The translations under genes were made by a program, and so were the position numbers. From positions 253-64,252 of the forward strand of contig JADFZV010000014.1 in assembly GCA_015232335.1 (NCBI GenBank): a stretch of DNA of 64,000 nucleotides, given 5' to 3'. Shown here piece by piece: positions 28,281 to 32,392 of this stretch (positions are counted from its first letter, which is position 1; every line of letters begins with the position of its first letter). The stretch is from Alphaproteobacteria bacterium (GTDB lineage Bacteria > Pseudomonadota > Alphaproteobacteria > Rhodospirillales > WMHbin7). The notes below the pieces were generated by a model. It saw nothing but the letters and a program-made list of their open reading frames with translations. It made no database searches and was not told where the DNA came from.

Positions 28281-29750
28281 GTGGACCGAGTGAAGGACGT
28301 CGTTGACCTCTTTTTGACTGTCGCGTGCGAGCTCGGCGAACACCCGGCGGTAGCGACGGATGATGGGAGGGTTACCTATACTGAACTTTCCTTGCGCGTG
28401 CGATCGATAGCGGCTGCTCTTCTAGAACGCAGGGACGCGCCGCGCGTCTTGATCCACCTACCCCAATGCGCAGATGCCTATGCCACCATGTTTGCTGTCC
28501 TGATGGCTGGTGGCTATTATGCGCCGGTGAACACTGACGCTCCATTTGCTAGGCAGCGGGCGGTTCTAGACAAGTTCAATCCAGATGTCGTTGTTGGCAC
28601 CGCTGCGAGTGCTGAGTTTCTATCCGCCTGTGGTCTGACAAGTGATATCTTGATTGACGTTGGTCAGGATCTGCCTGCTCCGCTGCCAAAGCCCATGCTG
28701 CCTGGCACTCTTGCTTATGTTCTTTTTACCTCTGGCTCGACGGGCATCCCAAAGGGCGTGATGGTTGGCCGCAGTGGCCTTAACCATTATGTGTCCTGGT
28801 GCCACCGCGCAATGAATGTAACCCATCAAGATCGGTGGTCACAGCATCCCAACATCGCCTTTGACTTGAGTGTTCTTGATATATTTGGCGCACTTTGTGC
28901 GGGCGCGTGTCTCTACCCTTTGGGGGGAGCGAAGGATCGCCTTTTTCCCGGCGATGCCATTCGTCGGCATCAATTGACCATTTGGAATTCCGTTCCTAGC
29001 GTGATGACCCTGATAATCAGGGCGCAGCACGCAACACCTGAGTTTTTGCGCTCTTTGCGGCTTGCCACATTTTGCGGCGAACCCTTGCTGCCTGAGCATT
29101 TAAAGGCATTATTTGATGCGGCACCAGATTTGAGCGTACATAACACCTACGGCCCGACCGAGGCCACGGTTTCATGTACCTTGCTTCCACTGAACTCGAA
29201 TATGTACCAATCAGCCTGCAGGGCGACAGTTGCTATAGGAGAGGCAATAGAGGGCATGGAGTTGCGCCTTGAAGGGGGGGACAATGCGAATCATGGGGAG
29301 ATTGTTATCTATGGTCCGCAAGTCGCACGTGGCTATTGGCGGGATTCGGAGGCGACCCAGGCGGCCTTTTTGTCGCATTCGCCTCAAAGCGCTCCCTATG
29401 CCTATCGAACGGGAGACCTGGCGGAGCGAGTTGACGGACAACTCTACTTTCTTGGCCGAAGAGACACTCAGGTTAAATTGATGGGGCACCGCCTGGAGCT
29501 TGAGGAGGTTAATGCCGCGCTTCGTAGATGCGGCGTTCCTCAGGCCTGTTCCGCCGTTATCAACGGAAAGCTTCACGCCTTTCTTGAGTTACCTGGACCA
29601 GTAAACCTGGATCGGTTGAAATCTGATCTCCTGCTGGAGTTGGAGGCCTTTGCGGTTCCCGGGCATTTTCATTTGTTTGATCGATTGCCGCGCAATATGA
29701 ATGATAAGATTGACGTGCGCTCGCTGATTGAAGCCTTTCACACCCCTTAG
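28281..29750 (+). CDS. Stand-alone amino-acid adenylation domain (DltA-like)
   Basis: A3 LAYVLFTSGSTGIPKGV, A4 FDLSVLD, FCGEPL, A5 NTYGPTEATV, A7 YRTGDL, A8 GRRDTQVKLMGHRLELEEV, A10 NDKID. Confidence 0.9.
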   Translation: MDRVKDVVDLFLTVACELGEHPAVATDDGRVTYTELSLRVRSIAAALLERRDAPRVLIHLPQCADAYATMFAVLMAGGYYAPVNTDAPFARQRAVLDKFNPDVVVGTAASAEFLSACGLTSDILIDVGQDLPAPLPKPMLPGTLAYVLFTSGSTGIPKGVMVGRSGLNHYVSWCHRAMNVTHQDRWSQHPNIAFDLSVLDIFGALCAGACLYPLGGAKDRLFPGDAIRRHQLTIWNSVPSVMTLIIRAQHATPEFLRSLRLATFCGEPLLPEHLKALFDAAPDLSVHNTYGPTEATVSCTLLPLNSNMYQSACRATVAIGEAIEGMELRLEGGDNANHGEIVIYGPQVARGYWRDSEATQAAFLSHSPQSAPYAYRTGDLAERVDGQLYFLGRRDTQVKLMGHRLELEEVNAALRRCGVPQACSAVINGKLHAFLELPGPVNLDRLKSDLLLELEAFAVPGHFHLFDRLPRNMNDKIDVRSLIEAFHTP

Positions 29751-29766
29751 ACAGAGGACCAATTAT

Positions 29767-30006
29767 ATGCCGCTTCCCACCCCTCTCGAGCTCATTGCGG
29801 CAGCGCTGGAATGCAGTCAAGACAGCCTTAACGAACACAGCGGGCTGGCACGTCATCCTCAGTGGGACAGCTTGGGGCATCTTCGGATTATGATGGCACT
29901 TGAGGATGCCTATGGCATTTCCATTACAGATGCATCAATACGCGAATTTGAAACATTTAGCGCTATACTTGCCGCTTACGCGCTTGCTCAAAAGTCTGCT
30001 GGGTAA
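29767..30006 (+). CDS. Acyl/aminoacyl carrier protein
   Basis: 79 aa; WDSLGHLRIMMALEDAYGISI with the phosphopantetheine Ser. Confidence 0.88.
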   Translation: MPLPTPLELIAAALECSQDSLNEHSGLARHPQWDSLGHLRIMMALEDAYGISITDASIREFETFSAILAAYALAQKSAG

Positions 30007-30014
30007 AACTCCAT

Positions 30015-30830
30015 ATGCCTCTACCCGTTACGACAGAGTCCGATCTAGTTGCTCATCTGCATACTCTTGGCGTTCGCCATGGCGACCGGATTGTTGTTCA
30101 CAGCCGCCTGATCTCTTTTGGCAATATTAGTGGAGGGGTTGCGACGGTTTACGCAGCATTTCAGCGCGTCCTCGGAGATAGCGGCACACTTGCCGTTCCT
30201 ACATATACGGCCGCGCTTGATGAGACGAATATCTTTGACCCCGCCTCAACACCTTCCCAGGGCACCGGGGTTTTTTCTGAGTTTGTGCGCAAGCAGACGG
30301 GGGCCGTTCGTAGTCGTTGCCCCATGCATAGTCACGCCGCCGTCGGTCCTGATGCCCATCTGCTTTCATTGCCATCCGGGAGCTTTTCGATTGGGCCCGG
30401 ATCTGATTTCGAACAGCTCCTGAGCGCAAAGTTTTCACTTGTTCTGCTCGGATGCTCTTTCAAAGAGGGGGCAACCTTTATTCATCATTCGGAAGTCGCC
30501 GCCAAGGTGCCTTACCGCGTTCCTCTGGACTTGCCACGCCTGGTGCTCGGCGCCGATGGGGCGCCTGCAGCTGTTTCATGCCGCTACTATGGGCGGCCAA
30601 CGACTGAATATTGTGAAAACTTTGATTTCATTCTGAGCGAGCTACGGGGCGGGAATGCCTTGCGCTCGGCCCCTTGCCCCCTGTCCTCAAGCTTTTTTAT
30701 TCCTCTTGAAGATTTACACGCAGCCACGACGCAATTGCTGCTTCGTGACCCATACTCTCTTGTATATAAGGGCGAGAACCCCTACACCATCGACCAGTAT
30801 ATGCAGGCAGGTTTGCTTGATCGCAGTTGA
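30015..30830 (+). CDS. AAC(3)-family (aminoglycoside 3-N-acetyltransferase fold) acyltransferase
   Basis: LGVRHGDRIVVHSRL, GTLAVPTYT, TPSQGTGVFSEFVR, RSRCPMHSHAAVG, LVLLGC...TFIHHSE. Confidence 0.85.
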   Translation: MPLPVTTESDLVAHLHTLGVRHGDRIVVHSRLISFGNISGGVATVYAAFQRVLGDSGTLAVPTYTAALDETNIFDPASTPSQGTGVFSEFVRKQTGAVRSRCPMHSHAAVGPDAHLLSLPSGSFSIGPGSDFEQLLSAKFSLVLLGCSFKEGATFIHHSEVAAKVPYRVPLDLPRLVLGADGAPAAVSCRYYGRPTTEYCENFDFILSELRGGNALRSAPCPLSSSFFIPLEDLHAATTQLLLRDPYSLVYKGENPYTIDQYMQAGLLDRS

Positions 30831-32392
30831 ACGCAAATAGGTACTCAGAAATGACATTGCCCAGAGTTGCTATTATCGGTCACTTCGTCCCAATGGCAAC
30901 GGTTATTGATTTGCCGTTAGATCCGCGTCATGCAAAAACCCTTCTAAGTCTGCACAACTACACGCGTGTTGCATACGAAGGCAGGCTTTATGATCATCTT
31001 GCATATCTTTCAAAGATAGCCCTTCGTGATCCAAACGAACGTTTTTCTGTGTGGGAAATTTTCCTGTGTGGTCCCCTGTTGCTGGCCTCCCACCTGGAGA
31101 GACTCGGAATTCCCACCCTGCTAGTAAATTCGATCGATTCGGATAATGAAGTGGAAAGCTTCGAACGCATTCGTTCATTTCAGCCAGACATTATTGCGCT
31201 AACGACAACTTTCGTTTTGACACAAAGCCAGATGGCTGCCGTTGGCCGCCGTTTTCGGCAAGAATTTCCGGATATTTTTATCGTTGCAGGCGGGCAGCAC
31301 ATTTACACCACCCTCCTTTATATGACTGTGGCTGAACGCAAGGATTATTTGAAGCTCGTAATGCTCGATGCTTTTGTCAACGACACCCAAGGGGAGGGGG
31401 CTCTTGCAGCCTTGTGCCGGTCCTTTCCACAGGGACTGAAAACCATTCCAAATTTAATTTGGCGCGACAGCGGTGGCGATATCCATCAGAATTCGCAATG
31501 CCTCGAATCAAATGATATCAATGCAACGCCCATCTCGTTTGATCTTGTTCCCCAAAAAGCATTTGTCCATATGCGAACAGCCAGAAGCTGCTCCTTTAAA
31601 TGTGCCTTTTGTTCATATCCATCGATCGCAGGCGAACTTAGCCTGATGGATTTGGAGTTGGTGCGCTCGACCCTTCGCGCTGCAACTGAGAAAGGTTTAA
31701 GTGCCGTCTTTTTCACGGATGATACTTTCAACGTTCCCCCCGATCGATTTGAACGCCTGCTAGATTTGATGATCGAAGATGGATTTGCAATTCCCTGGTA
31801 CTCCTTTCTAAGATGCCAGTACCTAGATGCGCGCGTTGTTATGAAAATGCGTAAGGCAGGATGTGCTGGCGTTTATCTGGGCGTTGAATCGGGTTCTGAC
31901 CTAGTTTTGCGCAACATGAAGAAGGGGGCCGTCAGCAGCTTCTACCGAGAGGGCATTCGCTGGCTTAACGAGCAGGGTATTACCTGCGTCGGATCCTTTA
32001 TGATCGGCTTTCCGGGCGAGACCAACCAAACTGTTGCTGAAACACAGGATTTTATCCTGGAATCGGGCCTTGATTACTACTACGTCCAGCCGTTCTACTA
32101 CCTTCATCACACGCCAATCCATGCTCGGGCAGGGGAATTTGGCCTAAGCGGCAATGGGCTTTTTTGGCGTCACGAAACGATGAACTGGCAGGAAGCCGTT
32201 GATCATGTCCATCGTCTTTTTTTGGCAATTGACTCTCCAATTCATGTGAATCCCGACTATACGCTTTGGGAGATTGCCTATCTGAGAGGTAAGGGCATGA
32301 CTGATGAATCCATTCAACTCTACAGACGTGAGATCAACCGTCTGACTGCCGTGCAGATGCGGACTTACGGGATTGTTTCTGACAAGCCTTGA
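30827..32392 (+). CDS. Cobalamin-dependent radical SAM protein (resembles PhpK-family class B enzymes)
   Basis: PDIIALTTTF, IVAGGQH, MRTARSCSFKCAFC, FFTDDTFNVP, LGVESGSD, FMIGFPGET, C-terminal TPIH...FGLSGNGLFWRHETMN; TTG start overlaps the AAC(3) stop. Confidence 0.85.
   Translation: MNANRYSEMTLPRVAIIGHFVPMATVIDLPLDPRHAKTLLSLHNYTRVAYEGRLYDHLAYLSKIALRDPNERFSVWEIFLCGPLLLASHLERLGIPTLLVNSIDSDNEVESFERIRSFQPDIIALTTTFVLTQSQMAAVGRRFRQEFPDIFIVAGGQHIYTTLLYMTVAERKDYLKLVMLDAFVNDTQGEGALAALCRSFPQGLKTIPNLIWRDSGGDIHQNSQCLESNDINATPISFDLVPQKAFVHMRTARSCSFKCAFCSYPSIAGELSLMDLELVRSTLRAATEKGLSAVFFTDDTFNVPPDRFERLLDLMIEDGFAIPWYSFLRCQYLDARVVMKMRKAGCAGVYLGVESGSDLVLRNMKKGAVSSFYREGIRWLNEQGITCVGSFMIGFPGETNQTVAETQDFILESGLDYYYVQPFYYLHHTPIHARAGEFGLSGNGLFWRHETMNWQEAVDHVHRLFLAIDSPIHVNPDYTLWEIAYLRGKGMTDESIQLYRREINRLTAVQMRTYGIVSDKP

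Follow-up and report, generated by a model that had tools for sequence, protein, structure and literature searches.

The window analysed here is a stretch of 64,000 nucleotides (nt) from an alphaproteobacterial genome (contig JADFZV010000014.1 of assembly GCA_015232335.1), which as a whole forms one large glycan island around the pathway of pseudaminic acid (Pse). Within this Pse glycan locus four genes lie head to tail on the plus strand, namely those for a stand-alone amino-acid adenylating enzyme of 486-489 amino acids (aa), hereafter A (28281..29750; PF00501, TIGR01733), a carrier protein of 79 aa with a predicted phosphopantetheine site at Ser35 in the motif WDSLGH (29767..30006; PF00550), an AAC(3)-fold (Antibiotic_NAT) enzyme that we propose to be an acyl-carrier-dependent N-acyltransferase (30015..30830; PF02522, AlphaFold, Foldseek), and a PhpK-like cobalamin-type radical S-adenosylmethionine (SAM) enzyme, a proposed methylase of the carrier-bound unit (30827..32392; PF04055, TIGR04479). 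An initial annotation of this stretch had described four co-directional genes with junctions of 16, 8 and -4 nt and the motifs FDLSVLD, FCGE, YGPTEATV and WDSLGH. The shared strand, the coordinates and all four motifs are found in the open reading frames, as are the gaps of 16 nt between the A stop at 29750 and the carrier ATG at 29767, and of 8 nt between the carrier stop at 30006 and the ATG of the AAC(3)-like gene at 30015. The junction of -4 nt holds only if the radical SAM gene starts at TTG 30827; the alternative ATG at 30851 gives +20 nt and fits a radical SAM protein of 513 aa, the length given for the window's own protein in its database entry (P0066) and by the gene call of L001, a 93%-identical relative. 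Similarly, the start of A is probably the GTG at 28290, which lies behind AAGGTGG, rather than position 28281. The gene arrangement is not a product of chance, because the same genes adjoin one another, often with overlapping stops and starts, in many unrelated contigs. A promoter and terminator scan of 27200-32700 returned fewer sites than were found in shuffled sequence.

The first gene is predicted to encode an adenylation domain: the protein matches PF00501 (AMP-binding; 202.7 bits), scores slightly under the cut-off of TIGR01733 (313.7 against 317.4 bits), and contains the FDLS and NTYGPTE motifs together with the A10 lysine (K476). The best solved relatives of A are AlmE (4oxi), with 195 bits over residues 144-484, followed by LgrA module 2 with 164.5 and DltA with 153-164 bits. 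Its hand-read pocket code, DLLNTCTVSK, is identical in 81 of 121 sequences (the window's A and its 120 closest homologues), with DLLDTCTVSK in 20 more, and it is retained even in loci where the overall identity of A is only 39-52%. Six of the ten pocket positions (D235, L236, C301, T322, V330 and K517) are common to Bacillus subtilis DltA, and the Cys at 301 is also present in the alignment of LgrA module 2, which, like AlmE, activates glycine. The combination of Asp235 and Lys517 points to an alpha-amino acid, and the substrate is predicted to be a small alpha-amino acid of the glycine or alanine class, glycine being as likely as D-alanine. Of the earlier label of a DltA-like A domain, the resemblance of the pocket stands and membership in DltA does not. 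The latter is ruled out by scores far under the cut-offs of the DltA models (227 against 559.85 bits for TIGR01734 and 243.7 against 476 for NF003417), together with the absence of any MBOAT (DltB) gene from the contig; judged by its sequence, A resembles DltA and is not a DltA orthologue.

The 79-aa protein has the features of a phosphopantetheine carrier, with a match to PF00550 (PP-binding) of 22.6 bits against a cut-off of 20.8 and a D34-S35 pair that does not vary among 13 carriers of related loci. Its modification is predicted, and the genome encodes one AcpS-type phosphopantetheinyl transferase. A nonribosomal peptide synthetase (NRPS) assembly line was rejected as an explanation of A and its carrier, since the condensation domain (PF00668) has zero matches across the whole 3.4-Mb genome. 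Of the earlier observation that the window contains neither a condensation domain nor an MBOAT protein, the first part thereby extends to the entire genome and the second to the window's contig, the three MBOAT matches of the genome being located on contigs C11 and C66.

The third protein matches PF02522 (Antibiotic_NAT) with 116.9 bits over profile positions 2-231 of 232, and its AlphaFold model (pLDDT 91.9) is similar to AAC(3) enzymes and to FrbF (Foldseek TM 0.78-0.82), FrbF being also its closest solved relative by sequence. It retains, as T154/H157/E160, the TxΦHΦAE motif described as the catalytic motif of the Antibiotic_NAT family (10.1101/2021.09.10.459797). Motif and modelled fold are both intact, which is consistent with the predicted catalytic competence. 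An exact look-up of the protein returned no record.

The fourth protein shows 85.6 bits to PF04055 and, over its full length, 369.8 bits to the PhpK-family model TIGR04479 (cut-off 600). Its match to the B12-binding domain PF02310 is weak (23.6 bits, under the cut-off of 32.1); PF02310 matches are precomputed for most of its homologues, and the TIGR04479 alignment takes in the N-terminal domain. The cysteines C255, C259 and C262 of the CX3CX2C motif are invariant. A search of this protein against 400 genomes of the phylum returned the window's own match only. Membership in the PhpK family and a role in a phosphonate pathway were rejected on account of the score and of the contexts examined, as no phosphonate genes were seen in the annotation of the window or in those related loci that were examined.

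Recurrence of the genes and their partners

The trio of AAC(3)-like, A and carrier genes was detected in about 20 independent loci, usually beside NeuB or PseB genes, and the full set of four genes in at least eight loci, in two gene orders; the survey of co-occurrence across genomes that the initial annotation had called for thus speaks for a recurrent unit. AAC(3)-like relatives at 40-64% identity always adjoin an A homologue and a carrier of about 80 aa, in varying order (AAC(3)-like/carrier/A in L002-L004; AAC(3)-like/A/carrier in L005, L007, where it occurs twice, L013 and L015). Most of the trios are surrounded by genes for NeuB with a SAF domain, PseB-like proteins, CMP-transferases or aminotransferases, and NeuB, PseB, CMP-transferase or DUF4910 genes are found within a few kb in L002, L007 (DUF4910 only), L009-L011, L013, L015, L043-L045 and L079. 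Moreover, the pairwise identities of the AAC(3)-like proteins and of the A proteins co-vary across 17 loci (r = 0.37, a value reached in 4 of 5000 permutations). The AAC(3)-like subfamily is small, with 74 clusters at E ≤ 1e-30 among 1.84 billion representatives, and its close members are sporadic, being present in three of 400 genomes of the class and in none of three sampled genomes of the same order; a contig scan with a narrower alignment returned only seven loci. In one variant that lacks A (L014, 203-5805), two asparagine-synthase-like genes accompany an 88-aa carrier, an AAC(3)-like gene and DUF4910, and the carrier there may be loaded by an ATP-dependent enzyme of a different type.

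The window's own genome contains a second, divergent cassette (L020; contig C11:186000-205999). All of its genes are on the minus strand, in the order radical SAM (380 aa), AAC(3)-like, A, carrier, DUF4910, radical SAM/SPASM, NeuB, sulfotransferase, B12 radical SAM, carrier and FkbH-like HAD protein, and the pocket of its A reads DPFFLTMIVK. One of the MBOAT matches (C11:185641-186363) lies just outside this cassette.

With respect to the donor of the AAC(3)-like enzyme, gene fusions among more distant relatives weigh most, and one further operon is informative as well. Carrier and AAC(3)-like domains are fused in P0374, which has a Pfam PP-binding match, and in P0406 and P0408, the N-termini of which contain carrier-like motifs of the IDSLGF type (IDSLQF, LTSIGF), and AAC(3)-like domains are fused to DUF2172/DUF4910 in P0418, P0419, P0432 and P0446. 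On contig L070, AAC(3)-like genes are paired with carriers in an FkbH (glyceryl-loading) operon; a tethered unit of the glyceryl type offers no amine to acetylate, so that the AAC(3)-like protein is more likely to be the transferase. Together, the two kinds of fusion and the L070 operon favour the prediction that it is an acyl-carrier-dependent N-acyltransferase that works with a DUF4910 partner. In a separate protein (P0311, 627 aa), an N-terminal region of 370 aa without assignment precedes a close AAC(3)-like domain.

The window encodes a DUF4910/DUF2172/HTH_47 protein similar to Cj1295 (54142..55488, minus strand; Pfam 345, 127.5 and 77 bits), which is the probable, if distant, partner. 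Genes for DUF4910 lie within a few kb of AAC(3)-like genes in L002, L007, L009, L013, L014, L015, L043-L045, L079 and the P0002 contig, that is, in 11 of the related loci examined, as well as in the second set of this genome. The window's protein itself co-occurs with an AAC(3)-like enzyme and a carrier in a nonulosonic acid locus, as expected for a module of the Cj1295 type. The neighbourhood of DUF4910 with an N-acetyltransferase and an acyl carrier protein (ACP) was flagged computationally in 2014 (PMC4000134), and genetic evidence from Campylobacter jejuni indicates that Cj1295 is needed for the replacement of the N5 acetyl group of Pse by di-O-methylglyceroyl (PMC3068675). DUF4910, which is conserved with the trio and sometimes fused to its AAC(3)-like member, is accordingly a likelier candidate for unmasking the acceptor amine than the PIG-L deacetylase to which this step had been tentatively assigned at first. 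That assignment was rejected, since the PIG-L gene does not recur along with the trio and is found in the pse operon, beside a gene resembling formyltransferases.

Relatives of the radical SAM enzyme at 48% identity or more were taken from a metagenome scan, and three types of operon can be distinguished. Type I comprises A, carrier, AAC(3)-like and radical SAM genes in two orders (the window, L001, the P0002 contig, L065, L068, L072, L079 and L081, with L071 in part). Type II consists of MaoC-SDR, FkbH, carrier, radical SAM and PseH-like GNAT genes in nonulosonic acid loci (L059, L063, L074, L076, P0071 and P0077). Type III, which lies outside sugar loci, combines a DltA-like A, a 488-aa protein, a carrier and the radical SAM enzyme (L060, L082-L085 and L089); in one example (L060, 4761-9536) the A pocket reads DFLAYCHVAK and the 488-aa protein is without a family match. 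A carrier gene lies within 3 kb of the radical SAM gene in about 17 of the 19 loci with enough flanking sequence, and more distant relatives (33-38% identity) adjoin FkbH/carrier pairs or NRPS megasynthases. The common factor is a carrier loaded with a unit of two or three carbons, which supports action of the radical SAM enzyme on a tethered substrate; given its family, the reaction would most likely be a methylation.

Proposed pathway and its alternatives

We propose, with somewhat more confidence than doubt, that these genes encode a carrier-dependent N-acylation by which a small aminoacyl group is added to a Pse-type nonulosonic acid or to the nucleotide sugar that precedes it. In this pathway A would adenylate a small alpha-amino acid of the glycine or alanine class and attach it through a thioester to Ser35 of the carrier. 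The PhpK-like radical SAM enzyme would modify the tethered unit, most likely by C-methylation, and the AAC(3)-fold enzyme would use its Thr/His/Glu residues to move the acyl group from the carrier phosphopantetheine to a sugar amine, acetyl-CoA not being used. The DUF4910 protein, encoded 22 kb away, would work with the transferase, most plausibly by stripping an existing N-acetyl group for replacement. The core idea of the initial annotation, a carrier-based aminoacylation of an amine of a nucleotide sugar or ulosonic acid, is thereby retained, and the conservation of the trio, the fusions and the linkage to nonulosonic acid genes all speak for it; the relation of A to DltA, the role of PIG-L and the place of the radical SAM enzyme are amended.

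Two routes to the acceptor amine are plausible. In an early route, the free 4-amine of the PseC product (later N7) would be acylated in place of the PseH reaction, which fits the extra NeuB paralogues beside several cassettes and the position of the GNAT gene in type II operons. In a late route, the N5 group would be exchanged after de-N-acetylation, which fits the linkage of DUF4910, the fusions and the N5 precedent of C. jejuni.

A lead on the amino acid comes from unassigned flagellin glycans of C. jejuni, which have m/z 332.15 (C13H22O7N3+) and 331.16 and differ by NH from Pse5Ac7Ac and Pse5Ac7Am. N-glycyl in place of N-acetyl would make exactly this difference, a reading that is ours and not that of the authors of the glycan study.

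A bolder version of the proposal, which in its entirety we consider unlikely, holds that the AAC(3) fold has a second mode of action with a carrier as donor and, together with DUF4910, swaps N-acetyl groups of Pse or legionaminic acid (Leg). The PhpK-like clade would then methylate a tethered unit of two or three carbons at an unactivated or alpha carbon, turning bound glycine into alanine or 2-aminoisobutyrate, and the unassigned flagellin glycans that are 15 Da (NH) heavier in some C. jejuni strains would correspond to N-glycyl-Pse.

Several observations weigh against the proposed pathway, and they bear on different steps of it. The pocket code of A was read by hand from motif anchors, with positions assigned by the GrsA numbering. 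The fusion proteins are distant relatives (about 30-39% identity), and a few of them could be artefacts of gene calling. Most trios lack the radical SAM gene and have a SAM methyltransferase, GNAT or sulfotransferase gene instead, and A pockets of the same code occur in trios with and without it. In L005 the trio lies among housekeeping genes, with no sugar genes nearby. Furthermore, every characterised Antibiotic_NAT enzyme uses acetyl-CoA as the donor (10.1101/2021.09.10.459797), and C. jejuni NCTC 11168 makes N5-di-O-methylglyceroyl-Pse with its AAC(3)-like gene cj1296/7 out of frame (PMC3068675, PMC13130089), so that not all acylations from a carrier depend on an AAC(3) fold. Finally, DUF4910 is reported to be without the canonical catalytic residues of peptidases (PMC4000134).

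The distribution of the radical SAM gene and the uniformity of the A pocket are the basis of a possible, if doubtful, alternative in which the trio acts as proposed and the radical SAM enzyme methylates the sugar skeleton or the transferred N-acyl group, or carries out a radical reaction other than methylation. With the same pocket in both kinds of trio, the target of the enzyme could indeed be the sugar or the acyl group already transferred. The four other B12 radical SAM genes in the glycan context of the window and a score under the PhpK-family cut-off point in the same direction. Against this stands the association of the subfamily with carriers in three unrelated operon types, one of which (type III) is outside sugar loci, and the adjacency of more distant relatives to NRPS megasynthases. 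Either way, its absence from most trios and the identical pocket code make the radical SAM enzyme an optional tailoring module.

The evidence on the donor is also open to a reading with the roles swapped, which we regard as improbable. Here it would be DUF4910 that moves the aminoacyl unit off the carrier and onto the sugar, after which the AAC(3)-like protein would N-acetylate the alpha-amine of that unit with acetyl-CoA, yielding an N-acetyl-aminoacyl nonulosonic acid. This would agree with the acetyl-CoA dependence of the characterised family members, with the frequent N-acetylation of known aminoacyl nonulosonic acids (e.g., Leg5Ac7AcAla) and with the requirement for Cj1295 in acyl exchange while cj1296/7 is OFF, and two consecutive steps would explain the fusions of AAC(3)-like domains with DUF4910 equally well. 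The fusions of carriers with AAC(3)-like domains, in contrast, would not be expected under swapped roles, nor would the pairing of AAC(3)-like genes with carriers that FkbH loads with a glyceryl unit, as these present no amine for acetylation. Moreover, the L005 trio is without DUF4910, L015 has additional GNAT genes beside its trio, and the reported lack of peptidase catalytic residues in DUF4910 counts against swapped roles as well.

Similarly improbable is an acceptor other than a nonulosonic acid, be it another amino sugar of the encoded glycan, a lipid or a protein. The isolated trio of L005 and the wealth of glycosyltransferases and sugar-modifying enzymes in the window would be compatible with this, and the Dlt and Alm systems, which follow the same logic of an A enzyme and a carrier, acylate teichoic acid and lipid A. 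On the other side, most loci with sufficient flanking sequence have a NeuB, PseB, CMP-transferase or DUF4910 gene no more than a few kb from the trio, and both cassette copies of this genome adjoin a NeuB gene. Lastly, as Pfam and NCBIfam assign the third protein to the AAC(3) family and automatic annotation labels its relatives aminoglycoside N3'-acetyltransferases, it could be an ordinary resistance enzyme that is here by coincidence, a view made highly implausible by scores of 46-95 bits against AAC(3) resistance models with cut-offs of 270-675 (the best being NF033082, 94.7 against 270), by the lack of aminoglycoside activity in its closest solved relative FrbF and by the strict linkage of the gene to A and carrier genes.

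The surrounding glycan island

The gene immediately upstream of the cassette encodes a NeuB-family protein of 243 aa without a SAF domain (27535..28266, plus strand; PF03102, 154.9 bits; TIGR03569, 174 bits, below cut-off). It lies 14-23 nt upstream of A and is kept with the cassette in L001, and in L002-L004 a full-length NeuB with SAF domain is encoded directly upstream of the trio. Possibly this protein is a dedicated synthase for the modified sugar, its membership in the cassette being uncertain. Further upstream are a CMP-transferase-like open reading frame (25582-26274; a weak match of 19 bits, below cut-off) and an open reading frame of 356 aa without assignment.

The Pse pathway itself is encoded at the beginning of the window by genes for PseB (433-1497), PseC (1506-2720), PseF (4349-5164), a PseG/H-like protein (5161-6672) and PseI (8038-9093). 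Inserted between pseC and pseF is a B12 radical SAM gene (2710-4443), and between the PseG/H-like gene and pseI lie a formyltransferase-like gene, of which only the C-terminal domain was detected, and the gene for the PIG-L deacetylase (6659-8044); this pair may swap N-acetyl for N-formyl on Pse. Other B12-binding radical SAM genes of the island are found at 42952-44430, 49176-50828 and 55755-57431 (minus strand), and a radical SAM gene without a B12 domain at 46721-47845. The remainder of the window encodes many glycosyltransferases, GDSL proteins and methyltransferases in addition to these B12 radical SAM enzymes. A single open reading frame at 59289-61628 (minus strand) unites an O-antigen-ligase (Wzy_C) domain with a class I methyltransferase domain.

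Relation to known systems

Nonulosonic acids of the Pse and Leg types coat flagella, capsules and lipopolysaccharides, and the way in which phages, antibodies and host lectins recognise them is shaped by their N-acyl groups, aminoacyl groups among these. Which enzymes add N-acyl groups other than acetyl to these sugars is largely unknown (PMC5378307). Aminoacyl nonulosonic acids are known as such (PMC7685785, PMC7371886): Leg5Ac7Ala is found in Escherichia coli O161, in which an "alanyltransferase", Lea3, has been predicted, and Leg5Ac7AcAla in Vibrio vulnificus. If the proposed pathway is true, it would trace aminoacyl and other unusual N-acyl forms of nonulosonic acids to genes that can be tested. 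The "AAC(3) family" genes that are widespread in glycan loci would also receive a function other than resistance, which bears on the annotation of resistance genes. Likewise, DUF4910/Cj1295 would gain a partner and a role, and a clade of cobalamin radical SAM enzymes associated with carriers would be defined. Literature searches linking these families recovered no biochemical or experimental characterisation of the gene set.

The closest parallel in the same type of locus is offered by the flagellin-glycosylation genes of C. jejuni, where Cj1295, Cj1296/7, an ACP and FkbH represent the same protein families within one Pse locus; a comparable system is the CA_C2195-2199 neighbourhood of Clostridium acetobutylicum. 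The C. jejuni genes are scattered, and their acyl unit is a glyceryl group supplied via FkbH, whereas the window has a tight operon with an amino-acid-activating A and a B12 radical SAM enzyme. Cj1307 and Cj1308 presumably also belong to the C. jejuni set. The AAC(3)-like gene of C. jejuni is phase-OFF and was without an assigned function as of 2026 (PMC13130089).

With respect to the individual enzymes, the window's AAC(3)-like protein has in common with AAC(3) enzymes and FrbF the fold (TM about 0.8), the Thr/His/Glu motif and, as predicted, the N-acylation of amines. It differs from them in sequence (about 22-28% identity) and in the linkage of its gene to a carrier, to which relatives are fused; its donor would be an acyl- or aminoacyl-S-carrier and its acceptor a nonulosonic acid or nucleotide sugar. 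The radical SAM enzyme shares with the P-methyltransferases PhpK and BcpD similarity over the full length, the CX3CX2C motif and a probable N-terminal domain of the cobalamin type, and its subfamily is set apart by adjacency to carriers of about 80 aa, for which A, FkbH or a DltA-like protein would be the loading enzyme. Other class B radical SAM methylases, namely CysS and TokK/ThnK, have substrates that are bound to a carrier or to pantetheine.

As for the overall logic, the D-alanylation of teichoic acids by the Dlt system (DltA/DltC) and the glycylation of Vibrio cholerae lipid A by the Alm system (AlmE/AlmF/AlmG) likewise depend on a stand-alone A enzyme and a small dedicated carrier, serve the decoration of the cell surface and involve no condensation domain, and AlmE is the best single-domain structural relative of the window's A. 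Unlike these systems, the window contains neither an MBOAT nor an AlmG-type acyltransferase (DltD was not searched for); the proposed transferase has a soluble AAC(3) fold, the acceptor would be a sugar amine, giving an amide and not an ester, and the step would be cytoplasmic. In butirosin biosynthesis an ACP-bound aminoacyl side chain is moved to an aminoglycoside amine by BtrI, BtrJ and BtrH. The logic is the same, with an aminoacyl unit on a small carrier and N-transfer to an amino sugar, the families responsible for loading and transfer and the acceptor being different. From the Dlt, Alm and butirosin systems, the one predicted here differs in the fold of the proposed transferase, the probable acceptor and the radical SAM partner.

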